Source of the DNA: Oikopleura dioica
Lineage: Eukaryota > Animalia > Chordata
Assembly (NCBI GenBank): GCA_907165135.1
Contig: OU015567.1
Coordinates: 6,076,001 to 6,140,000, forward strand
Length of the DNA: 64,000 bases
Reading direction: 5' to 3'
Shown here: piece after piece, positions 4,302 through 44,719 of the stretch
Layout of the letters: every line of letters begins with the position of its first letter
Position numbering within the stretch: position 1 is the stretch's first letter
The notes under the pieces: generated by a model
Told to the model about the DNA's origin: nothing
Database searches by the model: none
The model's input: the letters and a program-made list of their open reading frames with translations, nothing else
Made by a program: the position numbers and the translations under genes

Positions 4302-4470
4302 AAATACCTGAGTCAGGGTCTGAAAAGCTCATATGAAAAGCCGCGCAGTGGCTTATTTATAAACGAAGCCGCGAAGCGGCTTTGCTAATAATTCTATTTG
4401 CGGCTTCGCTTATAAATAAGCCGCTGCGCGGCTTTTCATATGAGCTTTTCAGACCCTGACTCAGGTATTT
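4302..4470. mobile_element. Palindromic MITE related to the 1988-2233 family (outer termini absent)
   Basis: aaatacctgagtcagggtctgaaaagctcatatgaaaagccgcgcag and its near-perfect inverse; shares cctgagtcagg and aagccgcg motifs. Confidence 0.75.
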
Positions 4471-4591
4471 CTATACAGTTTCCGTTGCTCAGACGGAAGT
4501 CATATGCAAAAATCTTCAAAAATAAAAAAAGTCCTACAAAAATAGTTTTTATACTTCGTTGTATTTACATTAAAATAACATATTCAAGTGC

Positions 4592-12400: not shown

Positions 12401-15400
12401 TTATAGAGCTAAGTTTATCATTAAGGCCGATGTACAACAGCAAGCGATGCTTTCGTCGATCAGTGGTGAAGAAGCCGGACCACCAAAGCCACAGAAAGAC
12501 ACTTTGGTTAGTTCAAACGATGGAGCATCTACTGATATTGCGGCTCCAACGCCGGTGGTCGCTGCTTTGGATGATCAGAAGATCGCTGAAATGCGTGCCA
12601 AGATCTGGGAGTCGAACGAAAAGCTCAAATTGCTGGGCGCTAGAATCCAGAAGTTCGATAATAAGAGCGTTAACAGGATGAGGTTTCGCTCTATGATCGA
12701 CTTCTTGCGTCTAGCTTACGATCAAATGTCGAAAAAGCTTCATCATCTCGTCGAAACCGCCGGCAAGGAAGGGCTTGCACCCTTGGAAATGGAAGTCGCA
12801 AGTTTGGGAAAATCGCTGGAGCAGTTGTCTAGCGATATTTTTGACGAAGAGATGCACTGGCACAATCAGCAGCATGAATTGGACAGAATCAACCAAGAAA
12901 AACGGCAGCCACATCAGCCAGCGATCGCAACTCCTCATCAACACAGTCAACTGTCAAATATGCCGTCACAGCATTTTCAACCTCCTCCTCAAATGAGCTT
13001 CAACCAGCGATTTACTCCCCAAAATAATTTTGGCCCCCCTCAGCAGATTCCTCCTCATCATCAGATTCCTCCTCATCAGCAGATTCGTCCTCATCATCAG
13101 ATTCCTCATCACAGACAGTTCATGCAACCACTTGGCAACAGCCAGATGAATTTGCCACGCCGTGGACCAGTGGCGAAAAATGGATGCAAACCAGCGCAAT
13201 CCACAAAAAGAAAAAGAACAAAGAATTAAAATGAAGCTGTTCTTTTTGTATTTTATAATTTTGTATTTTTCGAGCTCTTTATAAAACCGGAAAAGCTGTC
13301 ATTTTAGGATCCCGGCTCTCCTACAATATATCTCACATTTATGTGTAGAAGTTTATTAATTTATTTTCAGGTTCAGTTTACAAAAGCGAAAATATTTCCT
13401 AGGAAGTTTTTCCTGATCCGCTTTGAAGAGAAACAAACTTGGTGCGAAGCTCGCGACGATTTCGTTTTCGAGCAAAGAATTCCAGAAGGAAGCGAAGAAA
13501 AGTCTCTTGATAAGAATGGAAAGTTTATACGTGTTTTGCGCGAACGAGCGGAAAAGTTACTCAAGAATGAGGGTGGAAGTCGGCGCTGCGAAGGTAAGTC
13601 CGATCTTAAAACGAGATCGTAGGGCCTTCATTCACGACCTGGAAGATGAATTTAAAACGGTCAGAGTTGCATCGCTGAATTCTCTTTGCACCTTAGCCGC
13701 TAAAGAGTCCACTGGAGATTTCGCCAAGCAGTCGATGGACTACATGGTAGACATGCTCAACGATGAATTGGAAATTGTTCGCCTGAATGCGATTAATAAC
13801 TGCGTAAAATGGCTTCGCGAGTTCCTGTTATGCTGGAAGATCAGAATGAGAATGTATTGACGAGCTGTTTGCCCGATTCTAGGCGAGAAATTAGGTAAAA
13901 TCATTAAAGAATGGGCAAAAAAGATAATTTACGGGCGAAAAATTTATAAAGAAAGCGCTATTTCTCCGTTTCATCTTTATTTCAGAATTTCTACCCATCG
14001 ATTACTGTCCTGCTGCCGTCTTCTGTCCAAAAATGCCTGAATCGAACAGTAGAAGAGCTCATCCAAAGTCTTCAAAAGTTCCCCGAGGACGAATCATCCA
14101 TTTACGTAGCTGTTTGCTGCCTGTTAAATGCCGACGTCCCTCTTCATGCACAACAATTGTTGGCTCACAAGATCCAGAGCCCATTAGAAAAAGAAGCTGT
14201 CTGAGGCCTGGATCTGTTGGAAATCTGCGTTCGATCCTCTGGAAAACTCTTTCACAATGAAATCGGAAAATATAGATTTTTAAATGAACTTATCCGCGTT
14301 GTCTCTCCCAAATATCTTGGACCAAGGTAACGTGGCTTAAAACCTGGCTTATCGCATGAGCATCAGTCCGCTGCGCTCCCCCTCTCGCCTCGAGTTCGGA
14401 GGACTTTCATTTGGAGGACCTCTTTTTGCGCCCTCACGCAGATGTAGGGACTTGTAATTTGCTTGACCTCCCAAAGAAAAGCCACTTGACTAAAATTTAT
14501 TTTGTTTTTAGGTCATCACCGCAGGTTAAAACTAGAATTATTGAATTGATGTATGGTTGGACTATTGCATTAAAAGGTTGAGCTTTTCTTATTCTTACAG
14601 CTACTGACTTTGAGTTTAGACCAAATAAAGATTGCTGATGCGTATTCAATGCTCAAGAAACAAGGCATCGTCAAGAAGGACCCGAAATTCGACGACAGAA
14701 GATTTCTCCCTACTCCTCAACAAAAAGAAAGGTACCAATTTAATCAAAATCAGTGTTGAAACATTGTTCAGGTGCGCATTAATAAAAGACGATGCTGAGG
14801 AAAAGCGACTGGCGGAACTTCTTGCGTCCAAGAATCCAGAAGACATCGCCCTGGCAAATGAAATGATCAAAACCATGTACGAGCAAGACAGTTAAAAGAC
14901 CGATCGAGAGGCGCGCAAAATGCTTTTGATGACAGAAGCGAAGGAAAAATACATGCTCATGGATGATATGATTGCTGCTGGAGCTACGTAAGGCCAAGTT
15001 CTTCTCTCATTTATTAACACTCTCTGAATAAAGAGCGAAATCGGCGATGGCAACAGTCTATTCGGACTTGGAATCAATGAGGCCACAGCTCTTCCGTCTC
15101 GCGTCAGAAGCAAATGAAAACAACGATGAGTTGATGGCGGTCCTCAGGCTAACAGATGAAGTCAATCGAGTCATCAATGTCGTGAAAGATAAATACCCCA
15201 ATGTAGTGGAGCTTTCGAAGTAAATTCTTTCTCATATTTCCTCCCTATTATTGTATTCTAGCGCTTCTACGCCAACTTCAAATTGAAGCAGCGTTCCATC
15301 ATCTGGTCTCACTGCAACATCAAGTCCGGATACCCAAACTTCTCGCCTCCACGACCTCGGCGTCGACTTGAACCTGCTCGGCCTCGAGGATGATCCTCCA

Positions 15401-18400
15401 TCGAACAGACCAGCTCAAAGTAGTGGAAATGTGATCGACGATTTGAAAACTCTGAACAGTATATTTGGGTCCTCTCCAATGGGAGAAGCACCGTAAGTCT
15501 CAAGAATTTTCTCTTAATCAATTTATTAGCTACGATCCTTGGCAGAGGTAGTTTTATAAAGGATTTTGTTCATTTATGCATGCATTTATTATCAGCTAAC
15601 AATTTTGCCTTTACTCGTCGATTTTGATGATTACTGAAGTTCTAACAATTTTTTCAGTCAGCCAACTCTGCTGGATATTAACCCATCAGCACCTTCTGTA
15701 TCCGCCATGACGAGCCAAGCCAGTCCCCAAATCGCTGTTTGGCCCACTCCACCCGAAGTGGCGGCTTTGACGGGAATCAAAGTCAATCTCGCTGATTTCC
15801 AGGCTTCTTCGACGACAAGAACTCTTGTCGACGATGATGGAGTCAGAGTCATCCTTGTCCGAGGAGAGAATAAAATTCAAGACAGAAGTGATGTCCCTGT
15901 ACTGCTAGTCACTTTTGATTCGACAAATCCTGCACCTATCGAGAATTTAATGTTCAATGCTAAAGTTGCAAAACCTTTCAGGTAAGAATCCTTTTCACTT
16001 CGAATCCTTTCAAACATTTTCTTTCAGAATAAAACTATTACAGCCATCAGGCAACGAGTTCCCTGCGTTCAACCCCGTTTCATCAACTTCTTCGCGCATT
16101 ACACAATTGATTCTAGTGGGAGGGCCGCTCATCCCAAATCAACTGGCAGCTCTCTGCGCCAATACCTAAATAATGTATGGGTAGTAATTTATGACTGTGG
16201 TCTCTGTTCGTAAACGAATAAACTATTTTATCAATTTTACCAATTGACAGAAGCCCAAAATGGACATTTTGTCTTTTCTTAAGTTTTGAATCCTAGGAAG
16301 CATGCATACCGCGTAGCGGTAATATTGTTGAAGTATTAATTATCCATTGCAATTTTCCTACGCAAAAGAAAGGGCTTAATTGATATTCGTGCATGTATAT
16401 AATGCTAAAGGACGCAGGTACGCAGTTTTTACTAAAGTGAGATATGAAATGTACGTGGATTGTACTAAAAAATATGCATGCTTACTCAAGGAATAATAGC
16501 GATCACCTTCCAAGATGCAATTTTCAGAGTCCAAAAAAGCACCTGTTTCCGAAGTAAAAGTAAAAAGAAGGAGAAAGAAAAAGCCAAATATTTTCCTCGC
16601 TATCTTTACTAATTCTTTTTATGCGGCGAAGCCCCCTTCAAAATCAACAGATTCGTAGGACAGAGGCTTATCGGCCAACTCTGGATTCCTCTCACGATAA
16701 TCGGACTTTTTGGCCCACCAAAAGTACGAAAAAGATAGCAACAGACGAGTCTCATTTCCTGGAAATATCTCATCAACAAGAAAGTTTTCAAAAGTTGCAT
16801 GGAGTTTGCAGATTTTTCATTTTATTCAAAAAAACAGGAAAAGAGCAAAAGTTTCGGGATAAAATTTGATAAAGATAGTATTGCTTGTCATTTGATGAAC
16901 AAATTTAATAAAGCTAATATTGCTTGTCATTTAATAAACGAATATGATGAAGGTTGTCTATTATGGCAATAATGAAGAATAAGTTAATCATTTTATAAAA
17001 TTAAGCAGTAAGAGTATAAAGTAGTTTTAACAGAGTAAATGGTAAGAGGTACATTGTTTAGGTGAACTATAACGATTCATTTTATCATGATACGAACATA
17101 TATCTCATTTCATTTTACATATGAAATATTAAATTGCTTGGAATAAACAATGATATACCACAAATAGTGTTTCATTTTGAATACTTTGGAGCGTTTCTAT
17201 GCAAAATTTACTTTGTAAAGCTCATTTAGCTCATTAAGCATAGCTTTTTTTTGAATGGTTGTCTCTTTCGAAAGGGATTTTTTCACCTCATTTTTTATTA
17301 ATGAAGTGAAGGAGAAATTTTCTTCTTATATTCGCAAGAAAATAGGGCGCATAGCATGAGATCAAGAGTCGTAAATATTTGAACGACCTAGAAATTGACG
17401 TTCAAAAAGTTTTTCCGAGCGATGTTGTTTGGTAAACCTACTTCAGAAACTCACAATTGCCCTCAATTGTCCTTATCTGTCCGACTTGTTACGTAAAGCT
17501 ATGAACAGCATGCTCGAATCATTTGTTTTCTATTTCCGTGGTCCTTTATCCCTTTATCGGCTGATTTAGGAGCTTCGCTTTTTTCGCCATCATTTTCTGA
17601 TTCAGTTGACGATTCTTGATCCGTCAGACCGATTTAGCGGTTATAAGGAAACGCCGGTGAAGACAAGGCTCATTTTATCCAAGAAATTTATTTTTTTTGT
17701 GTTGACAATGGAAATCGACGCTCTCATGAGAGAACGCGAAGACCGCCTCGGTCTTCGAGATTTAGCCCTCGAAAAAGAGAGTGAAAGTAAGTCTGATATT
17801 AAGTAAGACAGAAAGATTATATGCGATTTAGGGGAGGATGAAATCAATGCACTGGAACAAGAGCGACAGGAATTGGAACTACGATTGTTTGAGATGGAAG
17901 AAAGGGTTATTGAAGCCCAGCAGGAAAGAGAAAGATATCAAGCACTTGCACAGCTAGCGCAAAATGATGCTGATCGACGTAAGCTTTTAAATTTAACACA
18001 GATAAAGACACTTATCCCGAATTTTAGTTGAGGATGAAATAATCGTGAGAATCAATGCTATGGAAAATGAAGAAGAAAACAACGACGAGGGTTTCGTAGA
18101 GGTGGATGAAGATTTGGATGATCTGAGCGACGAAGAGAATGCTGATTGATGATTTTTTTTTGACGAAGTACACTGAAAACAGGTTGACACTTGTAGCTGA
18201 CACAATTGGAATAAAATAAATAACTACCTTCAATACTATTTGTATTTTTCTATGCAGTCACTTCGCATTTGCAACATGGTTTGAACTTCAGATTCAGATT
18301 TATAAGTCAGCTGAAGGGAGTCGACTTGATTGAGGTTTCGAATATCTGGGAATTCTTTGAAGCCGATTTGCTTGCGTTTTGATTCAGAGTTCGTGCTAAA

Positions 18401-21400: not shown

Positions 21401-24400
21401 TTACTACGGAAACTGTTAGTCGAGAAACTACCGCTTCTTATTTTGAGTTTTCCAAGAGCGTAAATGATCTGGAATCTTCCTTGCCCCAGACTCGACCCAC
21501 ATTTATGCCCGAGTCAATATCCGTAGAGACTTCTATTCCATCATCTGTCACTACGGATATGAACACATTTTTGTCCACTTCTGGCCAAGAGGTTATCGAG
21601 CCGATCACATTTTTGTCGACTGCTGGCCAAGAGCTAATCGAGCCGGACGCATTTTTGTCGACTCCTGGCCAAGAGCATATCGAGGTTTATTCTGAGCGTC
21701 TGACATCAATGTTTCGTGAAGATACCTCAGCTGCAATTTCATTTTCATTTACATCTCTACAAGACCAGAGTCAGGCTATTTTTGAATCTCAGACCACCAT
21801 CCATTTTCGAGACACTACAGCTGTAACTACGCTTGAGGATTTTTCCCATAAAGCAACGACTGCTGTTTTCGAGGCCGAGACTCTAGGTTATTTCACAGAG
21901 GCTTCTCAAACTAAAAGTTCCGTAATTTCACAAACATTGACTCAGACGGGTTTGAAGGCGCAAACAACTCAGACTTCTTTCGTGCAGACGTCAACGTCTT
22001 TTGACATGTCTGGAGTAAGAGCGCTTTGAAAAAACGAAAGACTAAAAAGCTATTTCAGACGGATGGAACAACGGAGACTGCCATAGCAAGCAAAGAAGCA
22101 AACATTCCGGGTTGGCTGATCGCGGTCCTGGTTATTCTTGCAATGATTGTTCTCGTCGTTTGCATCGGCTGTGGTTATCTTGTAAGTTTTTATCATCTGA
22201 AACTATAAACAAACTGAATAAGGTGTACCGGCTGTACAAGTGCATCAAGGGATCCCAGCGAGAGCATGACTACGAGATGGGGCGTCCGAACAAAGACAAG
22301 GATCGAAAGAATGAACACAGCGACCAGGAAAACAAAGAAGATGACCCGCATCGAACAAGCCACCCCAAAAACGCTGGAATGGGCTTCAGGGACAGTGATC
22401 AAAACCATCGGCCTGATGAAACTAAGAAGGATGACAATGGTGATGCCGGTGATGAAACTAAGAAGGATGAAAATGGTGATGCCGGATCAGACAATTCACA
22501 AGGTGATTTTCTCAATAGAATTTTTTTTGGCAATTCCTAACTTTCATTAAAGGCGGAAACAGCTCCAATCAAAAGACCAAAAAGGATGAGAAGACCGAAA
22601 ATACGAATACACAAGGTAATACCAGTTTTCACTTTTCTACCGATTTTAACATATCAAATAAGACGGAGGAACAAATATGGACATCAAGGAAGAGAAAAAA
22701 CAAACAATTTCCAAAGACGCGGCGAAAAAAATCCCAAAAAAAAGTAAGTTTTTCTCCGAGAAAAATGCCACAAAATTAACTCTTTCCTCTAGAAAACGTG
22801 TTTAATCGCGGAGGAAAATTTCCATGGAACCCAAGCCCAAAATCAAGCAATTCCCAACCATCGACAAGCTTTTTGGCGCCGATTACTTCACCAATACAAG
22901 CTGGATTACAGACAGGTAACTTTGACAACAATTTTTTCAGCTCCTACTCACCTCTTTTTTAGCTGCAAACAAGATCGCGACTACCCTCCCACGAAACCTT
23001 ACCGTCCAATTCGAGCAGGATAACAAAAGTAATTTATTTTTATCAGACAAGTATCCAAACTTCTTTTAATTAGCGGTCACCGTTCGATCGGTCAACAAAA
23101 TTGAGGTCAAACCGAAGCCAATGCCTGGAAAAGTTACAAAGCGACCCCCAAATCGACCACAAGCACTTCAACAGCAAAGATCAGAGTCACGACGTGTGTC
23201 ACTTCCAGAGCCCCGACCTGTTTCTCCTCCAGCAACTCGATCTGAGCCTCTCCAAGAATCACGACCTGAGCCTCTCCAAGAATCACGACCTGAACCACTT
23301 CCAGAGCAACGACCTGAGCCGCTTCCACAGCAACGACCTGAGCCTCTCCAAGAATCACGACCTGAACCAAGACCTGAACCTCTCCGAGAACTACGACGAA
23401 GCAATCGTCTTATGACACCGAAGAACTACGTTGAGTTCTCTTCAGACGAGAGTCTTTAAATCGCCCTACATCTCACGAAATCCGCATAAGAGATAACTTT
23501 TGAAGCCCCTGTAAATTCTCAAATCTGCTTTTCATGCGTAAGAAAAGATAATCTAAATAAAGAGTGAATTGTGTGAAAATCCGTTTGAATTTATTTGTTA
23601 GCATGTTAAGGTTGACATAAACGAAAAAAATAATGAAAACATAAATGAATGAAGGGATCAAATATATCCAGATGCGTTCTTGAGTGGGGTTGCAGTCACT
23701 TGGTCATCAGCAATCTGCCATTTTACATAGACATTGTTCAGTGCATTCTTTGTTGTTTTTCGAATGACGATCTCGTTCTTACGGGCTACCATGCCTGTCA
23801 TTGTAGCGCTGAACTTTTCATCGTCAAGGAGAGAACGTACGAAATGCTCCACCGGTGTTTCAATATCCTTTTTGACGCCTTATTATGAGTTGAAAGAATG
23901 GTTTTATCCTTATAAGTGAACTTGAATTAGCTTACTGAGTACTTTCTAACCCAAGCCTTTCGTTGATTTTTTTATTTTTATATCCCCCTTATCATTTTTA
24001 CCCTTGAGAATATAACATTTAGAGCTCAAGCCACAATAGGTGCCTTGCCCATATATCCCACCCTCGATTTTGAATAAACCCGGCGTTTTCTCCAATTTTT
24101 TTCAGCAATTTTTCGGCTTCCTTCTTAGAGTTATTTGATTCTCGCAGCATCTGGTCAGTGACTTTTTCAGGAACCATCCATGTGTCAACGAAATTTTTCC
24201 ATGACTCCTTCTTCTCAGATTTGACGAGTGTTTCAACATCATCACCTGTATAAGCAATCATAATCGAATCGGTGTCTGCGTAGCAAAGTTTGAATGATCC
24301 TTCCTTCAGATGAGTGCATATATTATCAATGAAATTGAACATGACCAATTTGCTTTTCTGATAGACTTAAAAAATATTAAGAGACCAATTCACGAACAAA

Positions 24401-27400
24401 GACATACTAAATGCTGAAATATGTGTTGGAACGCTATCTCTCTGCGTTTTCTTCTTTTTGACAATTTTGACCAAAGATGTGGGTCCTTCAGCACTGATGA
24501 TTTCATTTTTTTCGAGCAAAGGCGATCTGATGTAGCGGTATAAATCAGCATCATCGATGTATTTTGTTTCCCTGTATTTAGAAACATTCTTGCCAAACAA
24601 ACCAGTGACAATATTAAGTACCAGCTTTGAAAGTTTTTCGCCAACTTTGTTCTCGGCAATATGATACCGGATTCGATCAGCGACCAGTCTATCGACGAAA
24701 GGAGCCATCGGTTTTTCCTTATTGTACATAAGAAGATAATGAACCTTCTAAAAGCGACATGATTAAGTTTTAAAAATCTTTTAGCGAACCTTAATAATAT
24801 ATCCCATATCCAAATAAAAATACAGTAGAGGAGTGATTAGAAGCATTTTTTCTCCGCCAGAATTATATATCAATGTGTTCTGGCTCACAGGCATCTCAAG
24901 ATTTCCGATTTTTTGATTTTCAGATAGCATATTTCTTTCTATCTTTGTTTTCTTAAAAATCATAGGAAATTTCAGATCTCCATATCGATTATAAACAGCT
25001 TTACTTGGCTCAATTTCCACCATTGCGAATCCAAAAACTTTTCGTTCTATCAGAGCATCGATTAGATCTTTTTCTCTTAGTTTCTTATCGTGGAAAAGAA
25101 AAGGACACCAATCTGGAGCCCAATTTTCTCTGGCATTACGAGCGAACTCTTCATCGGCCATGTTTCTTTTCATAAATTTGTCGAAGTGACATTCTCGCTT
25201 TATTTTAAGGATGTCGATTTTCTTCTCTATGAATTTCTTTCTTTCCTTGTCTCGTTCTTCGTCAGCGTCCTCATTTGTTTGGATTTTACATGAACGACAT
25301 TTATGCCAATAGCAGCCGTAAAACTCAACTCCCCATCTGATATTGTCTTTCTCATAATATCCATCAAGAGAATACTTCCCAATTTTCTTTTCGCCTATGT
25401 GATATGCATGTTGGATATCCACACCAGATTGATGTCGCAGATATTCTAGATACTGCAAGCTTTTGAGGGAGATTGATTCCTTGCCCTCATAGAGCAGATT
25501 CAACTTGAAATATCCAACATCACCAGCACGAGTAGCGTCACCGATATCCCCGGGATATACAGCGATTCCAGGACCACATGGCAGAGAATCCTGTAGAGTA
25601 AAAGGATACAAACTATTTGCATCAAGCTGTTTAATCATTTTGAAGAGTTCGCCATTGTCAGCATATCGGGCGGCATGTGGAAGAGGCCCATCTGGTTGGT
25701 TCAATTCGATCAGTCGGTGAAACACGTGCGTCATTCCTCCTGTCAAGGCTTCACGGATGTCCTTTCTCAATTCAGCATCAGTGATCGAGTAGATGGGTGT
25801 CGCACGCGCGTATTTACCAAACGCAATCTTTTCAGCAACTTGCGCCAATGAGATATATTGATGGATATTCACATTAAATTTTTCGGCAAACTGGTTACTG
25901 TATTCTACAATGCCTTGGCTTAGCATGTCTGTGTCGATGAGATTATAGACACGCAGCCAATCGAGCATCGTTTCACATTTTTCTTCTTCGAATAAGTCCT
26001 TTGAAGCCAAGTATTTATCAAGAGAGATATTGAAGAATTTTTTGGAGTCTTCGTTGATTACAAAGCAGCGAAGAGAGTTTTCCGCAAAGTATTTGATTTC
26101 ATCAGTTTGAATTTCCCATTTTTTTGCGAGGAGCTCGATATTCTCATCTGTGTTTTCGTAGCAACACTCAAAACTATCTGCTAGACTGTTGAGTTTTTCT
26201 ACAGGGACATCAATTTCAGCAGCAAGATCATCAATCGTCCAGCAGTGTTCAATAAGAAATTTGTTGACCAGGTGAACTTCTTTCTCGACAGGAATGTAGA
26301 AAGAGCTATAAAAGTCGGAGTACGGTGGAAATCCTTTGTAACTGATGAGCTCGTCAGTGTCTTTGAAACGTTCGTATGGGTAAACGGCTTTTGCTATCTG
26401 CAATCCAAGCGATTGAACAAACTATTGAACAAAAATTAAGAGAGGATTTTCAATCTGCCCTTTTACCTTTTCCAGAGACGTCCCTCTTTCAACGAGATTC
26501 ATCATGTCCTTGAATTTGATATTGCCATAGGAAGCAAGCATTGTTCCGGCGCCTCTTTGGATCATATTCATCTTTGGCTCAAAACGAGTATCCTTGTCTC
26601 GCTTTGTGACTAGTAAGTGGGGATGTCTACGACGAACAACTTCAGTCAGAGCATTGATTATAACAGTCAAGTCGAAGCGTTCGCTATTCCAGCCGTAAAC
26701 ATTGAGAGAATAGAAATCGTCAAGATACTTGAGCCGATCGCAGAGTTCTGCTTGCTTTTCAACTGGAAAATTGTGAAATTTCTCACTATTCTTCAATCGG
26801 ATCAAGCGCCATTTTTCATTATCGATCTTTTTCGAAAGAGTCCTATTAAATTCTTCCTGAATATCACATAAGTCCACGTAAAATTCATCAAGCAAGGAGA
26901 AAAGAGATTCTTGACTTGTCCCTCGGCGCCATAGAAATTTCTTTGTGTACTCGTCTCCGGCTGGGTTGTACGCATGCCATGCAATAGAGATCAGCTTATA
27001 CGCAGACAATTCCTCAGTCGTGGAACTTATGTTCTTCTCTTTTTCGGACCTTGGGACAGAAGCAGTTTCAATGTCAAAAGCCACAAAGCTTTGATGAAAC
27101 TCATTTGTACGCAAAATCTTGTCGTAAATCAGATCGTAACGAGTGTGATCAGTAAACATTCCATATTTCTTCTGTTTATGTGAGAAAGTTGTTCTGTCAG
27201 TGCATGTTTCCAGATGTTTCGAAAACTTTGCACGATCTGAGCAGCTGAAGGAGCAATTAGGCGTTGGACAGAGGTCAAAATTGATTTGCTCGGGCAGAAG
27301 CTTAAAGAATGTACTATCCGAGAATGTTTTCGTCTGATCATCCTTCGAAAGCTCCAGTTGAAGTATTTTTCCAGAGCCACAATAAAAATCTAGCTGTCTG

Positions 27401-30400
27401 GAAACTCTGTCAGCACCAGGCCTTGACAGTCTGCGCCAAAGAACAAGTTTGACATTAAACAACCTCGAGAAATTCTTGTAATTGGAGACTGTGATATCAC
27501 TCGTTTGTGCGAAGTCGATCCATTTCTGTCGTATTTCGGCTGCTTTTTTGAAAAACAACCTCGGGCACTTGTATAAATCCTTGTTTTTCACTTTCGCAAC
27601 GGCTTCGAAGATGGTCAGCTCAAGAGTATTTATCCGGTCAATTCCATGGTTGATAAATCCATCGTCAAGAAGCTTAAGCTGATTGAATCCATTAAAACGC
27701 TGGTCTTTGAAGAAAAACGTCAGACCGACACTGCCTGGACCCGGATGCTGCGTTTTATAAAAAAGACTATCGCCGCCATTCGCTGTTTTCTGATAGATTG
27801 TGAAATGGACATTAAAGTCGCTTTCCAGTGCTTTTCGAAATTTCAAAACTTATCGTTTAATGCCATTTATTATTAAAATTTTGAATATTTTCCTGATAAA
27901 CATGGGATTTTAAAAAGTCCGTATTTCTTCTGAAAGTCGATAAATTTGGAGTAATCAGCACGACAGGGATTTTTTGCACGTTTCGGATCTATGAGAGTCT
28001 TCAGTTTCTCTAATCGACGCTTGTCAGGTTTTTTCTTCTCCTGATTAAGAAGAACTCCAAGATAAGTAAGATTGTAAAATTGGTTGTTATCTTCTTTCAA
28101 ATGTAAAAATCTCATTTTTATCGGAAAATCATACTTTCCTGTTTTATGTATGAAAAAATTGACAGCGGAAATTCACCATACATGCGAAATTTCGCACGTG
28201 CACATGAGAAGACAAATAGTTATTTAAAAAATTCTGTTTCGAGGAGTTCTACGCCGTCCTTTCAACAAGCTGTCAAAGTAAAATCAAGAACTCCCGATTA
28301 CAGGATTTTTTTCAACTAAATAAGAGTCAGAATTCCAGAATGAGCGGAAAATTCAAAGAGTCAGAGATTGATTTCTTTCGGGAGTTAACAAAAGAAAAAT
28401 TGAATATAAATGAACTTCTTACAGAAGAAGAATATAAAGTGATGAATGATCACCAGGAAAGAAAGCAGATTTTAGATTTTATCGATAAAGGAAGTTGTCT
28501 GTATTTCTGTTAAGCTCTCTGGCTTTAGTAGACTTGCGAATAACTTGGAGTACTATCTTCAGTACAAGTTTCGACTATCTCATAAATCCCTCAAAGTTAA
28601 GGGAATGCCGAAAACCTATATCGATCGATGTATTCTGTCAATTCCATACGTCAACAATAACAAACTGAGCGAAGTGACTCGTATGATTACCGAAAATTTG
28701 TTTTTTCCTTACCAAATCGGTGTTGATGCATGGTTCATGAGCGCGTCGCAGAAGATGATCGGTTTGCTAACTGTTTCTCAAGTTTTAATAGCCGATGAAT
28801 AAACTTAAGATGGAAAAATTCAAGAAGACCTGAGGCTGTACTACTCGGGCTCTTCAACATGGATCAATGACACAAGAAAGGGTTATTAATTTTGTAGAAA
28901 AATCTTTGAACGCTCTTTAAAAACCTCATTGAAGAAAAATAAAAAATGATGAAGATGTTACTCAACTTCTCTCAGAGACCAAAGATGAGACATTAGAGTA
29001 AGTGTTTCTTCAAACTTTAGTTATAAGAATTATATTTTACAGAGAACGCCTTTTGGCAAGTCACGAGTTTGACAGGACTAACTTTCATCATTCGGGTGTG
29101 AGCTTGCGCCAGGTGCTTTTGCTTCGATATGAAATCGAAAAAACATATGGTAAATTACTTTTAATTAAATGAAAAATAATATGATCCTATTAGTTTATCC
29201 GAGCAATAAACTTCAAATTCGCGAAGAAGACGAGCAAGAAGAGGCGCAAGAAAGGGCAAAGTCAAATATTAGTATTCCATGAGTAACTGTTTCTCACTTC
29301 TGATTTAACACGATCCGACGGATTTCATTCTTCTCAATAAACTAGAAAGAGCAATTTAAAATGTTCAGTTTTTCAAAAACCGATAAGTTTGACACTTTGG
29401 GATACGAGGACTGTAAAATCCAAGAAGCTGCTCCTTATTGCAACACTGATGATACTCTTGAATTTCACATTGTTCCGCAAAAGAGATATTTCAAGGCGTG
29501 TGATTCTCGGCTGCATTTTCATATTGAAATTCCTGAAAATCATGTATTGGACAATGACTTTTGTGCGAAGCTCTTCAAAGGGCTTCCTAAGATTGAAATC
29601 GCAGAAGACCCAATTACAAGCAAATCATGTGATTTAGACTCTGCGTTTTCTTCTCATTTCTTGAATAAGTCATTATTCGATCAAACAACAATCGACTCAA
29701 CTTTTCCGATTATGGGCGTCTATGATATTTTCGAAGCTGACCAAGACGACATCGGCAGAAGTATTATTGAGAATCGAAAAATGTATGCGAAGGAGTTTTT
29801 AAAAGAAATCGAATTCGAAGGAAAAACTTACAACACTAAATGGCTGAGATACGAATTCAAAATCCCAATAAATCATGGAATCGCTCGAGCACCAATTATT
29901 TTACCAGCTGGACTTGGAATCCATCTCTCGTTTGAGCGTGCTCCAGCAAAATTTTCGCTTTTAAAAAAGAAGAGTATGCTTGATGCGACTGACGATGTCG
30001 GTGATGTGGTTGAGATTGACTATGATTTTCCGGATCCAGTTGTTAAGCTCGTCAGGCCTGTTTTTAAAGCAATGTTTGTTTTCTCTGAATCATTGGAAAG
30101 GGAAATGAAAAAGTATGCGACTTCGAAATTCGAAACCACGTTCTTGGACTACTGTATAAGAAGACCTACCTTAGACAAAGGCGATACTGATTACACTGTT
30201 AATCTTACTAAAGGAGCGTTCCCGAAATACGCGGTTCTTTCTGTTACCAGTCTCAAACGCTCACATGGAGATTACAAGCAGTCACTGACAAAACTAGAAC
30301 GTGGAAACATAGAGCAAGTTGATGTTCTCGTTGATGGTTCGAGTCTCCCTGGTTACCCCCTTAAAACAGATATGGATTTTTACGAAAATTTCCTTATGAT

Positions 30401-33400
30401 GAGCGAACGATATCTCAATCCCTGGAGCTCCGGTGTTTTGCCACAACCACATTATCTCAAAACCAACTTCTTTGTTTTGATCAATTTTGAAATGCTCGGA
30501 AGACGCAATGCTGCTCAACTCGTGGTCAAAATAAAATTCACTCAGTCACTTGATGATAAACACCTTCTTCTGTTCATGCCTATAATTGAAAAAAAACTGA
30601 CAATTACTCCTGAAAATGATGTTACTGTAGAAGCTGTGTAATAAATCTGATTTAATCTCAACCGTAAAGATTGTTATAATTTTCATCCGACCATGAAATC
30701 TTATTTTGTTTCCCTTGCGACCTATTTGATCCGATCAAAAATACGGATTTTACGGCGTTCAAAGATATGATCTTATCTTTTGTCAGAAGATGTCTCAGTG
30801 AGTATGAAATTTTCTGATCTTGGCGTATATAACCGAGTAAGAGTCAATTTCTATTGTAAGATATTCTTATTTTTAAACAATGAAGATGACAACATGGAAG
30901 AAATAAGAGACGACGATTTTGAAAAAACCCACGAGAGTTTATTAACCTTAAAATGATTCATTATTCTTTAAAACTTTGTTATCCTTGAACAGCATTTATG
31001 CTCGTTTTAATTTTGTTACTGTTTCTTAAAATGATACCGTATTTTATCAGATACTCCTATTACCAAAACTAATTTTTTAACAAATTAAATCAAATAATAC
31101 ATATTTCTAAAATGATCTGATCGGTGAGATTTCAGACAGGACAATGAGATCGTAGGGTATAATCGGAACCGGTGTGTTTGACATCAGAAATCGAATTAAG
31201 GTATGTTATGCAAGGAAAATATATTTAACTCTATTCAGGATCCGGAATCCATTATTGCGAAGAAACGAGTGGAACTTTTTTGACCAAACTATAGGTCCCA
31301 GGTTTGATCCTTTTTGTAAAATTTTTTTTTCAATATTCTCTTAGAGTTCTTCTCTGACGAATATTCTTTCGCCATCGAGTTTTGCTGCAAGGAGTATCTG
31401 ATAAAAATCCGAAAAAGCAAAATCAAGATGCTCCTGTTGTTCCAAAGGTATTTTTGTCCTTCAGAGTTTTTCTCACGCGAATATTTTTTCGCCTTCGAGT
31501 TTTGATGCAAGGAGTATGTGATAAAAACCCAAATCAGCATAAGCACGATGTTCATGCTGCTCTAAAGGTATTTTTGTCTTTCAGAGTTTTTCTCACGCGA
31601 ATTTTTTCGCCTTCGAGTTTTGCTGCAAGGAGCATCTGATAAAAATCCGAACCAGCAGAAACAAACATGAACTATATCAGGAAATTAAGAAGAAAACAAG
31701 AGATATTCAGGCTGTTCCTTGATAGCAAAGTATTAAAGAAGGTATTTTAGTCTCGAAAATCACTTACAAAACTTTAAAATCAATTTTTGAAGGCTTTAAA
31801 TCCTGTTCAGCTGCTAAATCAAAATGAAAATGACAAAAAGAAAAGTAAGTGATATTAAGGCTGTTCTTGGATAGCGAAATATTGAAGAAGGAATGAATTC
31901 AGATCAAATGCGATGTCTGCTCACAGTCAGCACCACTACGCAGGCTGTTCTGGGATATCAAAGTATTGAAGAAGAAGTAAGTCTCAAAAATCACCTTCGA
32001 AAAATCAAAATTTTTTTTAGGCTTAAAATTTCGTTCAACCAATATTTGCAACCTTAGTTCTTGGAGAGCAAAGTATTAAAGGAAGCTTAAATCTCGGTCA
32101 AGAGCTTTGCACCAAACAACTACCAAGCCGCACAAAAAAACAAATAAATTCTGTATCTGCTTATCTGCAAACCAATAGAAATAAAATTATATTATTTTTT
32201 CAGTTTATTTTCGAAAAGAGTTTCTTAATTGTCGCAGTATTTTCAATTGCATTTTCTGTGAATAATTTCATAAAAGACAACAATGATTTCTCACATTCGA
32301 GTGACCAAAAAAGAAAAGTGATGGCAAAAAGACCACAGTTAGAATGAGTTCTCATTTGAATTTTCGGGGAAGTGATGAGAGTTCGATCACCCATCTCAGT
32401 TTTGAGAAATAGGTGGAGATTTTCGTATGCACTATTTTTTATGTAGCCGAGAGGGTCCATTATTTCGATAACATCATTTTTTACTATAAGACTTATCCAA
32501 TGCGTTCCATTTGTATGAATTAGAAAGCCAACAGGAAAAGAAAGAATTGTGAATTTGATTAAATCGTCAGCAAAGAAAATTCCCCCAAAATTCGCGAGAC
32601 CGTGCAAAAGCTCTTCAGCGCTAAATAAATTAAAGAATCAGCGATTAACTTATTTCAGACCTTTCGGCGTCCATTTGATCTTCTCTTCTTTCCTGATTTC
32701 TTTTTTGATTTCCTTTTTTTTCCGGCGCCTCTGATCCTCTTTGGGACAAATCGAATTTTACGGCTAAGCTTATTTTTATCAATAAATTTTTATTTCCCCT
32801 TACCAGAGCCCTTTCTTTGGCATCTCTTCAGTCAATTTTTATGAATAATGAGAGAAACAAATTTAAAATCTAACACGTTCGAATATTTACACTGGGTAAA
32901 TTTACAAATCATCGAGAATGATCTGAATATGATCACTCATCGATCTTTAGAACAAGCGAAATGTAGGTCACATGACTCGGTAGCCTAGAATATTATTTTA
33001 AAAAGAATTTATTTTAAAAAATATCACCTGAGCGAGACATAAAATTCTCCTCCGCTTATCATATCCCACTGCTCAGCTCCTGATGGCGAGTCAAATTGAA
33101 CCCCGTTTGGAATCGTTAGAAGTATTTTATCCGGATTAAAAACCGATGGATTGATCAGATTGCACCGAATGTCCATAAAATCAAGCTGATCGTCATTTGA
33201 TCGGCAGCAGTAGCTCATAACTGATACATAAGATCCCTGGAGAGGATGTCTGAACCACCATTTAATCATCTTCTCTCCGGGTAAATTTGTAATATCTGCC
33301 GAGTCAGAATTTAAACGGATCAGTCGCATTCTTAAAAAAACCATCTTCAACTATCTTTCATGAGGGTCTTTTTCGGAGAACAAGATTCAGTTCATTCTCA

Positions 33401-36400
33401 TAAAGAGGTCGCAAAAGTTTTCCACGAGGTCCTTCGACACGATAGTAACAAATGTCGCCTGATTTTTGCACTTTCCAAATCGTGTAGAGGTCTTTTGTCC
33501 ATTTCATCATGTAGCCTTTCTCAAATGTTGCTTTTCGCTTTGCTTTTGGACTCGCAATAATAATTGGAATTCGCACCTTATCGCCAACTCCAAACTTACA
33601 GATCAAGTTTTTAGTTTCTGCATTTGGAAATTTTTTATGGTAAAATTCACGAAAATTGTCGATAGTTATATCTATTGGGGCAATCCCAAGCCGGCTATGC
33701 TTCCGTTTGTTTATGTTATCGCTTAATTGAAGATAGACATTTATCCAAGTTTTAGTTCTATTTTCGTCCATAAACTGTTGGATCATTTTTTTAAAAGTTC
33801 GGCTATATAATAAAGATCTATTAACGAAAAAATATTGATATTACATGAAGCGCTCAGCCATCGTAGCTTTGTGAGGTCCTCCGAGCTTGTATTGGACCAT
33901 TCCAAATTGTTCAACGAGAACTTTATTAATGAATCCTTAAAAAATCAACTTATAATCGATACTAGAGAAGTTGACGCTTGCCTTCGACACGCGGCGCGTA
34001 TTCTTTTCCACCATCGCTCGAAAAAGTCGAAGGTATATGCTCCATCGACTCAATTATTTCTTTCAATGAGGCCGCAGTTTCCTCAGAAGTAAGTGTTTTC
34101 TGAGCTTTTACCCAGTTTCTACTGCTATAAACATCAATCACGACTAAAATGTATTTATATCCGCGATTTTGACGACCATACATACTGTAATCACTAAAAC
34201 AATTTTTTTTTTCAGTTTTTATTGAGAAATTTGCTTACATAGTATCAGATTGAATTTGAGTATAAGGGCCATAAACAACTGTTCGTCTACGCTTAAATTT
34301 TCTAATGATACGCCGATGTCGAGATAGAGTTTCTTTTTCACGCAAATAACGCTGTAGATCAGTTGAATAAGCAGTGATCTGTTTCGGATCAATGTAAAGC
34401 TGGTCAAGTTTAATCTTCTTCTGAGGAGGAGTTTGATCCGGAGCTTGCGCTGCCACTGTCGGAGCCGCTGCTGTCGCTCTCGCTGTCTGATCTTCCACTT
34501 GATCCGGAATCCGAATATCGGGCTCCTGAGGTGGTTCCACCTGATTCAAATTGTTTTCGACTTGCCGGGCTGTTTGGAGGGGCGATTTGTCCGATTTTCT
34601 CTTCCTTGTTGTCATCGCATGTGAGTTTTTGCTTCTTTTTGCTTTCTGGATCATCTGGATACCCGTCCTCGTCCGACCTCTTTGCGAGCGGTCGTTTCCA
34701 CGCGCTACTCGAGGAGCTTCCTTCTCCAAGGCGTTGTTCTCGTCTTCGTCCCGCTTTTTTGAGTAGTTTCGAAGCTTTATGACTTTTCTTGTCATTGTTT
34801 CCGAAGTACCCTTGGACATTTAGTTTTTTTTCAAGTTTTCCTTAAAGTCATACATTTATCTAAAGTTTATATCTAACCTACCAGTAAATATTCCTTCTTC
34901 AGTCTTGTAGACCTTGCAATGGCGTTTTATCTCAGCGAGTGGAAAAATAACACTTCGTGGCATAATTCTGAATGAGTTATGCCGAGGCAATCCGATGAAT
35001 TCATGAAGTTATTTTTTCACGCCTTTTTATTTACACAAATCAGGATTAAATTCAGAATAGAGTTTTGAAATGCCACAATGGAATTCTTCGCGGAGCTTAC
35101 GGCAACTAGTTATTACCACAAGAACAGAAATTTCTTTTTGGACGGTCAGATAACAGAGATATTGAAACGTCCAAACGATTCCCTCCAAAACTACAAAGCT
35201 GGAGATAAAATTTCGATAAAATTCTCACCGGAAATTGCAGGAGAATTTTCTTGGCTCATTGGAAACAGAATTTGCTTTTTTAAAGCGGTTCGTGCGGAGC
35301 CGAAGAAATTCCCTAAAAACGGTGTTACTCACGAGCTTATCGTCACTGAAGCAAAAAAATGCGTTCTCTCTCTGGCAGAGTCATAGACGACATCAAATTT
35401 CACCACCCCGCATCTATTCAAGTCATCGGCGCAAGCGGGTAAAGTTCTTATCTTTTTTCGAGAATTAAAAATATTTTCAGAACTGGAAAAACAAAATTTG
35501 TTGAAAAGCTGATACGACATCAATTTTTTACAAAAAAAATCAGACATGTTTTTTATTTTGGAGCCATCAATAATTTACCGATCGATTGGGACAACAAGTT
35601 GCCTGATGATATAACTATAAAGTACCAAGAAGGGCTTCCTACAACTTCAGATTTCATAAATGTTCCGAAAAGAAGCGTCATCGTGATTGATGATCAGTTC
35701 AGTGACGCTGTTAATTCACCTGATATCAATAGAGCTTTTACTAACGACAGAAGAAAATTTGATTTTAATCTCATCTTGATTACTCAAAACCCATTTGAAA
35801 AAGGGAAATTTACGACTGGAAATCGGCGTAATACTGAGATCACTGTCTTGCTAAGAATGTACGCCGATCAAAGTCATTTCAAAGTCTTCGGCAAACAATA
35901 TGGCGTGGAGCGCGAGTTAGAAGAAGCTGTCAAGGACATGAAATCAAGACCTGAAGATGTGCATGCCCATATTGTTATAAATGGCAGTATAAAACTCAAA
36001 GATCAAAACTTAAGAGTCATGTCAAATATATTTGGTGATTCTCCTTATTTGCAACCCTCACTTCCGATCTGCTACACTCAAAAACATCATTGAAATAAAT
36101 CATCCTCTGTTTTTAACCTTGCTTTACTGTATTTATTTGATAAATCATTTTTTGATGAGCAGTTTTTTTCAAATTTAGGACGAATCTTCGGTATCCGATT
36201 CGTATCCTGGAAGGTAGACTGGACTTGGAATTTCTGCTTTGAGCCATCCTAATTCGGGGTCAGCGAGGAGGTCTGGGGTGATTGCAAGGTCTCCAAATTT
36301 TTCTAAATTGATTTTATAATAAGTTTCCAAGGATTTTTTTAACCGTCTACCTTGAATCGAAATCTGAGCCATTTCGAAGAACTCCTGCATCGCCCTACAG

Positions 36401-39400
36401 CTACGTCTTTTGAGACCTCCGATGAATGATTTCTTCTCAAAAGTTGGGACGTCATATCGTTGGCAGATTTTGTATCCGAGAGCTTAAATAAATTGGTTTA
36501 TTGATAAAAATTCTGAGCACTTACAAATAACATAAGAATATGTCAAGAAAGCTCGCTCAACGGAGGTTCCTGCTTTTGTTGTCACGTCTTCAAAGTGGCC
36601 GATCAGGTCATCGGCCAGAAGGTCAAATTCCAAATCTCTGCTCGAATTGCAGAGTTTCACATATGAATCAAACCGTTTGTTGTAGAACTCCTCGTTGGCG
36701 ATATCCTGTGTTATCAAGACAGCGATACGATTTCTAAGGAGATCGACTAACTCTCCATAGCCGTAGTCTGATGCCTTTTTGACTCCAGTGTAAGTCTGGG
36801 CCAGTCTTCGAAGAGTTATTCGAGCGCTAAAGTCATTCATTCTCTCAAAGCTCTGAGTGATGCTAAATTTGTCCGAAGGCTTCATTTTATGCAGAACACA
36901 TGCGAAAAATAACACCTCATCAAAATTTTTTGTCTGCCAAGATAATCTAAATAAAATTCAAGACATCATGTGAAAAACTCATTATAGCGCTGAATAGAAA
37001 TTCGCTTCAATTGTTTAAAAGAAAGAAATGAAAAGAGAGATTTTTCCATATAATTTTTTTATTACCAAATGCAAGAAGCAACCGAATTGTTTGCGAAACC
37101 ATTTACTCGTCCAGCTGATAAGAAGCGACTTTCTCAAAAAAGGATATTTCTCTTTTAAACAGAGATCTGGCTTCTGTGTTCTATTCTCGGCGCCCATTGA
37201 CTTTGTTCGTCCGATATATGTCACAGTCGATCGTTCTGACAGAATAGAAAGATTGGATGAAGGCACACGAAGACGACTCCTTATTCGCAAAAATAGGGGA
37301 TCTCTGAAGATTGCTATTCCTGCGCGAGTTTTCGAACATAACTGTGAATCAAATGTCTGCAAAGATCGGACCAAAATTCTGAAAAATCTACGAGTACTGT
37401 TTCATACTGATTCTTACCTCCCAGATATGGTCATTACTTCAGAGAGTGAAATCGGACAACTCTTTTCCGCAGGTCTCTGGGATCAGCCAAAAACTGTCAC
37501 TTTCCATCAATAAAGCTTTATCCAAAAAAAATTATGTTGACCCTTATTTATGCATTTATTTTAAAAAAGCATTGATTAGGATATTGAAATTTGAGCGTTC
37601 GGAGCAAAGGGTGTGAACGGCCACCCTCAAGACAACAGAATCCATGTTGCTCGGACTCTGGCACTAAATTCTAATTACGCGATTAGCCTGCCAAAATCAT
37701 AAAAATAAAAATTCAAATTGGTATCTAAAGAGTTTCCTTTATTATCAAAATAACTTAGCTAAGAACAAAAATTTTCAGTACGAAGCAGTATTTCTCACAG
37801 GATCGATCGAAAAGGTCAGCTCGAAGTTTTTTCGTCGCTCTCTTGATGAGTGTTTTTCTGATTTCTCCAGCGTCATTTTTATTCAGATGTCCATCTTTCT
37901 CGATGACTCGTAGAAGAGTTCCAGTCAAACGTAATGCAAGCAAACCATCGACGCTTGAGGACCGCCCATCGACCCAGTGGTATCGATACATTTGCTCATA
38001 GAAACTGATGATCGTATTATGGGCGTCACGCTTAGTCTTTTTTTGTTTTTTGCCGTAATACTTGTTTTTAGCTTGTTTGAAGGCATCTCGAATGTAAGTT
38101 GCTGATCGTTGTTCCATTTCGGTTTCGTACAAGATAAAATCGATTATTTTTTTCAGTGCTTGGTTCTCCTTAAGAAAAATTAACGGCAAAAGCATTTTTT
38201 GATTTGATTACCGGGGTGATATAAGCCGTCTCATTTTTCGGCAAAATGATTGCTTCACATCCTGCATTCAGCTGTTCTTCCGTGAGCGTCGGAGCGGCAG
38301 TGGTAGTTGCCGCTATTAAGCGAAGTTGGCCGAGATTAAAAATGATAACAAAAAAAAGAATAATCCCTGCAAGAATTCTCTCACGTGTCTCTTCCATTTT
38401 ACGGAATGGAATGATATCAAGAATTAAAAAAAAAAGAAACTTTTCTTCGCTTAAAAAGTGTTATTTTTGACACTTTTTTTTGGCTGAGGTTTTTACAAGT
38501 TTTCATGCGTGCATATTAAGAAATACAATCTTGATGGTAATTATTTTATTGCAGTATAATTTCATAGATGGAAACAATTTTTAACAATATGTTAGTGGAA
38601 GGAAGAAATTTCAGTAGAAAATAAAATATAAAGTTTTGACATTTTATGAACCATATAAGGAATTTTAGAAAATTTTAAAATGATTAAACCTGAAAGGCTA
38701 TCATCCGAGTTTTCATTTTACTGGTTCATTTTATGAATAAAAAAATGATTGATCAAATCGTGCAAAAAAACTTGCTTGATCATAAACACGCAGAAAAATT
38801 TGATTCATTTAATCACTTTTAAAGAGACTGTTGAAGATTTCGATTCATTTTATTTAAAAAATAATAGGGAAACTTTGATTGATTTTATCGAGTACTTCGT
38901 TTCTAATTTAAGATGCCGGACAATGATGCCGATTAACAAGTTCAAGTTCTTCAGGATTTCGATTCATTTTATCATTTAGTTTGATAAGTTTTATCATTTA
39001 GTTTTGATAAATGCCGGACTATGATCGTGAAATTGCAGAGGATTACGATTCATTTAATCATTTAAAATATTTCTTGTCGTGATCTTGAAGTCGTGGCTTC
39101 ATTGTAATTGGCGATAATGGATCTCTCTTCTAATCAGTTTTTATTTTTTTTCATATTTTTAGTGTGATTGAAATCGCAAGTTGGATTTGTTTATAAGGGA
39201 AAATTTCTCAATAAAACAGCGCCGTTATTTTTTTCTAGGCTGCTTAAATTTGAAAGACCTATTTCTCAAAGTTGATTCTATTGAATTTAGGTTAGGGGTC
39301 AAATAAATTCTGAGACGATCATCTAAAAAAATCTTCTGTGAAATAAGCCGCACTTTAATGCAGAGCGTGTGCCCATGCTGAGCGCGTGCCCATGCTAAGC

Positions 39401-42696: not shown

Positions 42697-44719
42697 TTAT
42701 TGAGAAAAGCGTTCCCTGTAATCGAGAGAGTTTGAATAATTTTGAGCAGCAAGTGCTGAATAATAAATACAATCATTAACGGAAACGCCTGTAAAAGTAT
42801 TTCCTAAAAGTTTGATGCCATTTTCTTGCGCGAGTTGTTGAACTTTCTCGGAGTTTTCGAGGTGGTACTTGTTCATCAGAGGAATATCGGCTAAAGAAAT
42901 GTAGAAAACTGAGACTTAAGGGTGTCAACAACGATTTCCCCTTTATTCGATCGTTTTTGACACCCTTGAAAGGGTCTTACTTGGGCTCGGCAAACTGTGT
43001 TGAAAACCTTAGTCAGGCAACGCGGCTCTGCAGAACCTGACTCAGGTTTTCAACACAGTTTGCCGAGCCCAGGGTCTTACCAGTAACTTGATGTGTCCAA
43101 GAAACTTGAAAAGAGTCATCGAGAATTGCTCCTAATGCATCTTGCACCAGATTAGGCAGTTCTTTTTGAGGACGAGTAGACATGATTGTATACCTGGCTC
43201 CTCTGCCGTCGTGCTCTGGCATATTACTGTATCACAGGATAGAAAGTAGAATATAAAATCAAACTTTTTAGATTTGCCTTGAGCAAACTTAATGATAAGT
43301 TACATCCCGTCCCAAGAATCATAAATGACGCCGAGTATATCCGGATTCTCACAACTGGGCACGAGGAAGCCAAAACCAGGATTCTTCGGCAAGATCATAT
43401 TTTTCAACTCGACCAGGGTCACATAAACATTCGTCGATTCAAATCCTTCTAGGAGTTCAAAAAGCTCCTGGGGAAAGTCGTCAGGGTGGAGAAGAGTGCT
43501 GAGGATTTTGGGACTCGAAGTAGCGAAAATCTGGTTGAAGGATTTTTCTTCGCCGTTGCTATCCGCTATTGTAAGATGTTTTCCCTCTTTTCTGATCAGC
43601 TCCGCGGATGTGTTAACATGAACCGTTGCATTTTCAGCACGGTCGATTTCTTCGTTCATTTTGAGAATCATGTCTTCGAGTCCGTTTTTCAAACTCCAAA
43701 CTTTCGCCTTTGAACTTTTCGCACTGTCCATCGGCTGCGAAAAATAAGGCTCCAAAAACGGCTTGGCCGGAAAAGTATAGTCCGTGTTCCCAATTGATTT
43801 TAATATGTTCAGAGCGGGAATGCCAGTCATGAAGTATTTCTCCACCGCCGCCAGGGTATTTGGAACTGTGAGGTTTTTGGAACTCGTGGCATAGATTCCT
43901 CGAGTCATCGAATCGCTTTCAGAGGTTCAATCGTTTCGTTTTGAAATCAACGAAGAAGACGATGGATTAATCGAACCGTTCATAAAATAATCTGCTGGTT
44001 TTTGTCCGAAGGTTTTTTTGATAAGATTGTACAAGCTCACATCTCTCGGGTGGTTTTGCTTCTTGAAAAGGCCGAGGCCCATTTGCACCTTCTCCGCCCA
44101 GGTAAGCTTGTTGAACAAAAGCGCGCTGGGAAGAGAGTAAGGAAGGCGGGTGACTTGGCCGTCGAACATGGCGAAGCGGAATCGAGCGGCGGGGTCCTTT
44201 GCGGTTCGTAAAATGATGTCGTTTTCTTGCCAAGGCTTTTTTCTGAGAAGAAAGTTTTCGGAATGGATTTTTGTATAAAAGTATAAAAGCCGGGACCTTT
44301 CCTAGACCAAGTTCTGTCATCAAAGACAGTGCATAAGCCGAAGACTGTAAATTCGTCGCCACTCTGACTGAATGAGGTCCTGTTTCGAATAAACCGCCGG
44401 ATGGAGTTTTCATGGTCTTGATCCAACCACCCGTGGTGCTTGAGCTTTCGTAGAGATGGACATGGTGTTTCGGGCAATATCGTGCCAAGCGGTAGGTTGC
44501 GCTTAGTCCACTGATGCCTTTTTTCTAGCTCAAAAAATTTCTACTCAGTTTAAGCCAATAAGATTATTATTGTATGTTTGTTATTGTATATTAAATACTA
44601 TTGTTCAATCAGATAAGCCTTTTGATTGGCCCACAATCACAAAAATTTATATCAAAAATTAAAAACAGAAAACATAAATTTCGAGCTATTCCTGCACCAA
44701 TGATACCAACTTTCGGCAT
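42697..44719 (-). CDS. PPOX: Protoporphyrinogen oxidase
   Basis: MPKVGIIGAG|ISGLSATYRL, YESSSTTGGWIKT, FETGPHSVR, GFGFLVPS..ILGVIYDS, GNTFTGVSVNDCI; GA-AG and probable GG-AG introns. Confidence 0.92.
42981..43072. mobile_element. 92-bp hAT-like MITE in a PPOX intron
   Basis: TTGGGCTCGGCAAACTGTGTTGAAAACC...CCGAGCCCAG with perfect 8-bp TSD ggtcttac. Confidence 0.88.

Follow-up and report, generated by a model that had tools for sequence, protein, structure and literature searches.

How do the core genes of a Maverick/Polinton, a class of virus-like mobile DNA, come to be split by very short intron-like inserts, and are those inserts removed as introns are? The question is raised by a stretch of 64,000 nucleotides (nt) from Oikopleura dioica (assembly GCA_907165135.1, contig OU015567.1, positions 6,076,001 to 6,140,000 of the forward strand), which we call the window and within which all positions below are counted. 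An element of 33.1 kilobases (kb) occupies 6512-39624, with the genes of interest in its right half. It is flanked by a 6-base-pair (bp) target-site duplication whose letters are identical on both sides (6506..6511 and 39625..39630, both + strand), and is bounded by 59-bp terminal inverted repeats with AG-type ends: the left arm (6512..6570, + strand) starts AGTAGT and pairs with the right arm (39566..39624, - strand) at 95% identity (E 7e-23). Inverted repeats of Mavericks/Polintons usually reach hundreds of bases, and these are shorter. The element also encodes the polymerase, retroviral-like integrase, packaging ATPase and adenovirus-type cysteine protease expected of the class, and it is an integrated, multi-copy Maverick/Polinton of O. 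dioica that, judged by its intact ends, is recently mobile. Mavericks are a known class in this species, as a figure legend records (PMC5240408). One common printed description, intronless core open reading frames (ORFs), forms no part of the definition and does not apply here: the core genes contain 11 introns.

Short inserts interrupt the genes for the polymerase, the integrase, the ATPase, the protease and the minor-capsid-like protein, and very probably they are spliceosomal introns. They were located by three-frame reading and a boundary script. Five lie on the - strand in polB, the gene for a protein-primed DNA polymerase B (pPolB; 23658..28117, - strand, six exons, drawn from homologs and sister gene models): intron 1 at 27849..27892 (GA-AG, 44 nt, with an in-frame GT-AG alternative of 53 nt), intron 2 at 26422..26466 (GT-AG, 45 nt), introns 3 and 4 at 24748..24789 and 24366..24407 (both GT-AG, 42 nt) and intron 5 at 23879..23956 (GC-AG, 78 nt, a 72-nt GT-AG alternative being disfavoured). 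The integrase gene (33358..34819, - strand) has three, at 34194-34238 (45 nt), 33936-33981 (GC-AG, 46 nt, with an uncertain donor and GT-AG alternatives of 55 and 40 nt) and 33803-33844 (42 nt). The ATPase gene (35359..36093, + strand) is split within its Walker A motif by 42 nt at 35439-35480, the adenain-like protease gene (32200..32674, - strand) by a GT-AG intron of 40 nt at 32621-32660, and the minor-capsid-like gene (32933..33329, - strand) by a GT-AG intron of 43 nt at 32985-33027. An earlier sequence-only reading of this DNA had proposed ten of these, and all ten are present at the lengths it gave (polB 5, integrase 3, ATPase 1, protease 1), together with six more candidates in three other genes, the minor-capsid-like one among them; of the one or two protease introns it described, of 40 and 35 nt, the first is the one at 32621-32660, and no 35-nt intron was found in that gene.

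The ten listed inserts differ in composition from their surroundings, with 67-83% AT compared to 59-64% in four measured exons, and at least two of the three frames of each insert contain stop codons. Five of the six core genes are split in this way, the exception being the major capsid gene. Over the whole core set, with its roughly 8.3 kb of coding sequence, the 11 introns amount to 1.3 per kb and the exons average about 490 nt. The absence of introns from the capsid gene is not significant, since about two would be expected at the rate of the other core genes and the chance of finding none is about 0.13 by our own arithmetic. The median size of 16 element introns is 44 nt, against 42-43 nt for 16 candidate introns that visual inspection gave in the host-like genes of the left arm.

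If the inserts were coding, homologs should contain them, and at the tested sites homologs lack them. The polymerase has 1862 library matches at E<=0.001, and 19 of its homologs bear PF03175; Pfam matches to the polB exons themselves fall under the cut-off, PDB sequence searches gave no relevant match, and locus scans found none in viral contigs and, for polB, none in the metagenome. The polB comparison used the best 150 of these 1862 homologs, with breaks read through as X. At intron 2, 78 of the 79 spanning homologs differ by no more than two residues from the length after splicing; at intron 3 the spliced length is exact in 119 of 136; and at intron 4 it is approached to within two residues by 108 of 111, the one homolog with 14 extra residues having an alignment gap upstream. 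When the first 19 homologs were aligned with MAFFT, only introns 3 and 4 could be judged. At intron 5, the K-x-x-x-K-G motif is present in 80 homologs, and in none of them does the sequence go on in the way that the 72-nt GT cut predicts; the 78-nt GC cut is the one used by two sister models. Integrase intron 1 is crossed by a gap-free match of 59 columns to a related locus (L004), where a reading that keeps the intron needs gaps. Ends of the GT, GC or GA...AG kind combined with restoration of the homologous protein on removal, as expected of U2-type introns, were thus found for polB introns 2-5, integrase intron 1 and the ATPase intron.

The first polB intron calls for a different argument. 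It is followed by 230 codons without methionine, within which 31 of the 150 homologs nevertheless align, so an upstream exon is needed. The public polB model, which bears no functional name, begins downstream of this intron, as would follow if an intron had been missed. The GA donor of intron 1 sits in an AG|GAA context, which has been reported for GA-AG introns in O. dioica (PMC7072748). We regard the non-canonical donors of polB intron 1 (GA) and integrase intron 2 (GC) as likely. Both of these introns have in-frame GT alternatives; among the 11 core-gene introns there is at most one GA donor, itself with such an alternative, and at integrase intron 2 homology does not choose among the GC and GT cuts. 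GC-AG introns are processed by ordinary spliceosomes. The further suggestion that splicing restricts expression to this host thus rests on one uncertain donor and on short intron size.

Copies of the element elsewhere in the genome provide a second line of comparison. P0001, a named O. dioica gene model, matches the largest polymerase exon at 100% identity, and its 90% cluster includes two further polymerase models, giving at least three near-identical models on two chromosomes. Three copies splice polB introns 2-4 in the public gene models, two of them also intron 5, and one model splices the ATPase intron, so the idea that these introns hide the genes from annotation does not hold for the host models. 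It does hold for plain ORF annotation, which would fragment the genes, and one large survey of such elements, of protists, assumed no introns (PMC10120064). In the window copy the reading frame of polB shifts within a homopolymer run near 24.1 kb, a point overlooked by the first reading; two sister models read through it, contigs from three sequencing runs differ there from the window, and it is either an assembly error or a private mutation. P0002, the public model of a sister copy, fuses an integrase-like N-terminus to the polymerase, through an internal deletion of that copy or a false model.

Variation between copies was read from the DNA contigs of four runs, in which all 30 bins were covered. 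In one contig (X1 record 1, 23680-24373) nine of 16 substitutions fall in polB intron 5, with 86 of the 694 bases intronic (P 3.5e-5). Among the 40 best-supported of 494 substitution rows, which include all 16 of that contig, 35 lie inside polB and 26 are exonic, and 19 of these 26 are silent and 20 at third positions. Length variants occur inside three introns (three among the best 12 of 126 such rows); polB intron 4 and the minor-capsid-like intron each have one in a single run (X5 for the latter). Eight DNA joints were listed in the contigs of the four runs, none of them at an intron; because such contigs drop rare forms, a DNA copy free of the introns may still exist. Four RNA runs under the same species label (three bulk and one single-cell) yielded 7, 3, 9 and 0 reads on 21000-39650, all partial and without joints, and speak neither for nor against splicing; population divergence or silence of the element could each explain the scarcity.

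The introns appear to be older than much of the divergence among relatives, and not universal. Metagenome-assembly proteins are taken here to have been called without splicing. P0040 (84% identity) runs into unrelated sequence at polB intron 2, and P0029 with two cluster members (55-56%) ends at polB intron 3, in a tail compatible with a GTAAGT donor, P0029 being sister to the family in the window with a tree support of 100. In the ATPase, P0023 (96%) and P0027 (78%) start in an intron-like tail just ahead of the second half of Walker A. Introns common to relatives at 56%, 78% and 84% would thus predate much divergence, and the long residence that had been proposed agrees with break positions shared at 56-84% protein identity. 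The intron 2 site is read straight through in P0125 (41%), and ENA/JGI products of 1807-1849 amino acids, which group with other O. dioica families, cross the positions of introns 2-4 or 2-5. Both observations fit intron gain within the lineage of the window. As a lead read from protein ends of mostly unassigned source, 50 of the 150 homologs stop short, and many of these have tails resembling a donor at sites other than those of the window, which weakens the case for a peculiarity of this host; several such ends cluster in polymerase motifs with GT-compatible tails at query positions 1127 (4), 1225 (3), 1230 (2) and 1233 (3), where the window gene has no intron. On these comparisons, intron-bearing Mavericks look like a broad clade with intron turnover, and within it the introns of the O. 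dioica family are host-sized.

Introners, which would appear as many near-identical introns at unrelated sites, were considered and rejected within the window: pairwise similarity among 16 introns is at shuffle level (best score 23 against 23.9 +/- 2.6 for shuffled sequences), and only chance matches of 13-16 nt occur elsewhere. Repeats at the intron junctions have 0-5 letters.

The explanation that we favour, and consider probable as a whole, is that the introns were acquired singly while the element resided in host genomes, and that the host spliceosome removes them. Host RNA polymerase II would transcribe the Maverick genes in the nucleus, and the host's own spliceosome would remove the introns. 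Mavericks copy DNA to DNA without a reverse-transcription step, and because of this a gained intron would be kept and pass to all daughter copies, with only its ends and size remaining constrained. Intron positions would turn over among the lineages of a wider intron-bearing clade. In the combination of host transcription and splicing, gain during host-genome residence and retention by DNA-to-DNA copying we have good confidence.

Several points weigh against this explanation. An RNA junction was seen for no intron, with coverage amounting to 19 partial reads. The public gene models come from AUGUSTUS, which was given RNA hints, and at this locus they may be prediction alone (PMC8008620). The direct comparison with homologs is confined to polB introns 2-5, integrase intron 1 and the ATPase intron; none of the best 150 of 1862 homologs spans the junction of polB intron 1, and at polB intron 5 the length of the region varies among 92 homologs, one of which has a 27-residue excess, making this the weaker test. 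One decayed ATPase homolog (L002) scores higher with the intron kept (66) than with the exons X-joined (54). The variation described above comes from the best-supported 40 of 494 substitution rows and 12 of 126 length-variant rows. The shared intron positions are taken from the protein ends of metagenomic relatives and not from DNA, and the tree is a midpoint-drawn FastTree tree with partly fragmentary rows.

An alternative that we consider unlikely is that the introns are real but for the most part descend from an ancient Maverick that bore introns and infected larvaceans, while Oikopleura did no more than trim them to its own size; they would then be a record of ancestry and loss and not of gain in this host. 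The early ends clustered in polymerase motifs are what such an ancestor would leave, and P0067 (31%, from a neighbouring branch) ends exactly at polB intron 4 with a phase-compatible tail. However, one exact match to one of four junctions is by our own estimate not rare when 50 early ends are spread across about 800 positions; the window gene lacks every motif intron of these relatives, and the majority of homologs read across the sites of introns 2-4. We think it very improbable that the inserts are instead decay, that is mutations or introner insertions in a dead copy that look spliceable and remain unspliced in the working life cycle. Introners do enter integrated maverick-polinton proviruses after integration (PMC11957031), vertebrate surveys score such inserts as decay (PMC8097293), and the window copy has its polymerase frame change. 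Yet the inserts are common to sister copies, which read through that change, and are shared down to 56% identity; exon changes are mostly silent, the 16 introns are no more alike than shuffles, and the element ends and target duplication are intact. That the element is a domesticated host locus, such as a defence or germ-line gene cluster whose introns mark its domestication, is scarcely credible: introns are a usual mark of domesticated transposon genes and the polymerase lacks the usual motif B tyrosine, but at least three near-identical polymerase models on two chromosomes, intact inverted ends with their target duplication and the frame change point to a mobile family, and related O. dioica families are also without that tyrosine.

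At least three further pPolB families are annotated in O. dioica (P0028, P0039 and P0183), at about 26-40% identity and most without a functional name. In a second O. dioica family (P0183 and P0034) and in the relatives P0038 and P0044, every protein stops at one site, directly behind a common VYQ motif and before an E or D; the codon that follows CAR there starts with GA, the pattern that an unrecognised GA-AG intron common to all of them would leave. A bolder extension, which we put forward only tentatively and hold to be rather doubtful, would place all Oikopleura Maverick families in a large marine clade of pPolB elements that has been overlooked and whose introns turn over fast, some families having GA-AG introns removed only by larvacean-type spliceosomes, which would bind an element that encodes a capsid to the lineage of its host. 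Should GA donors be confirmed, compatibility of the splice code becomes a testable limit on host range.

The remaining features of the element are as follows. The left arm is about 16 kb long and contains intron-bearing fragments of host-like genes (approximately 7221..16150, + strand) with Pfam matches to the 2-oxoglutarate dehydrogenase C-terminus (E 2e-19), an AAA ATPase (E 9e-11), SAP, TPR, HEAT and an adaptin-ear-like domain; these are likely captured multi-gene cargo. Further ORFs without a family or Pfam match lie on both strands at 16200-23460, and tandem repeats at 21561-21686, 22414-22485 and 23159-23392. In polB, motif B (24600-24625, - strand) has T in place of the usual tyrosine, where related O. 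dioica families have V and 83 of 122 aligned homologs have Y; the missing tyrosine may affect polymerase fidelity or substrate choice. Next to polB, a gene without assigned function (28340..29281, + strand) has four candidate introns found by three-frame reading and the boundary script (28762-28809, 28882-28934, 28998-29042 and 29150-29193, + strand). The single intron-free ORF at 29361..30641 (+ strand) likely encodes the double jelly-roll (DJR) major capsid protein: its Atlas score is 0.96 to the DJR-like and Capsid_N clusters, at a recognition value below the bar of the tool, its single-sequence AlphaFold model reaches a pLDDT of only 30 with no usable fold, and it has no match in Pfam, PHROG or PDB. 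Between the capsid and protease genes, 31343-31960 contains three 120-nt repeats and a region whose structure differs among copies.

The protease matches Pfam Peptidase_C48 at 21.7 bits, above the cut-off of 20.7, and C5 weakly (E 0.018). Directly upstream is a small basic ORF (32655..32823, - strand) inside which copies differ in length and where boundary inspection gives a second 40-nt candidate intron (32764-32803, - strand). The product of 32933..33329 is provisionally labelled minor-capsid-like (penton) from a motif, and it has no family match in Pfam or further family searches. The integrase matches Pfam rve from one exon (E 2e-7, 31.5 bits for a cut-off of 32.6), and also the integrases that adjoin an ATPase in loci L004 and L005. 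The ATPase, defined from the public model P0026 with its relatives P0023 and P0027, has no Pfam match to the packaging ATPase family; Walker A and B-like motifs are present in P0026, and matches occur in seven metagenome loci, distant and mostly decayed, two of them adjoining an integrase. A gene without assigned function at 36175..36957 (- strand, start not fixed) has a candidate GT-AG intron of 42 nt at 36483-36524 by the boundary script. Palindromic, mutually related elements resembling miniature inverted-repeat transposable elements lie on both flanks (1078-1207, 1983-2238, 4291-4481, 40534-40716 and 42982-43071), as does a 298-nt repeat (4572-4869 and 41183-41480), and 39816-63800 presumably holds ordinary host genes, whose translations suggest TBC-domain, protoporphyrinogen-oxidase-like, SMARCD-like, SF3B3-like and sugar-kinase-like products.

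Gene finders that ignore introns would misread this lineage. As surveys use prokaryotic gene finders or score inserts as decay (PMC8097293, PMC10120064), a clade with introns would be counted too low and its members mistaken for dead elements. The positions of introns could serve as a slow clock and as a record of host residence versus horizontal transfer. Because the ancestral state was probably intron-free, the element offers a clean system for following how introns are gained, and its host is known to turn introns over at a high rate. Our literature search, made in listings and text passages and not in repeat databases, found no report of spliceosomal introns in animal Maverick core genes, and a term search of the available text of PMC10748475, PMC8502044, PMC11067885 and PMC9860276 returned nothing on the subject.

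Print calls the core genes of vertebrate and nematode Mavericks intronless (PMC8097293, bioRxiv 10.1101/2022.07.12.499685), in line with the premise that Polinton genes are described as intron-poor. Vertebrate Mavericks share with the present element the inverted ends, the 6-bp target duplication and the pPolB, integrase, ATPase, protease and capsid genes; they differ in that the ORFs of all 134 intact elements are intronless (PMC8097293), where the O. dioica core genes have 11 introns in about 8.3 kb. Nematode Mavericks with cargo resemble it in the core gene set and in intron-bearing, host-derived cargo near the left inverted repeat, but their introns are confined to 2-5 kb of cargo (bioRxiv 10.1101/2022.07.12.499685), whereas here introns are in the core genes and the left arm extends to about 16 kb. 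Maverick-polinton-like proviruses of dinoflagellates also contain intron-type inserts within full-length integrated elements (PMC11957031); the inserts there are introner transposons present in repeated copies, most of which postdate the integration, while the inserts described here are mutually unrelated and shared across diverged relatives. The introns themselves resemble those of the host, in a size near 42-49 nt, in GA-AG ends with AG|GAA and in GC-AG ends (PMC8008620, PMC7072748, PMC5240408). Introns of O. dioica have a median of 48-51 nt and 11% are non-canonical genome-wide (PMC8008620), compared with two or three of the 11 element core introns, and the median host exon of 152 nt, set against a mean of about 490 nt in the element core, gives the element the lower intron density.

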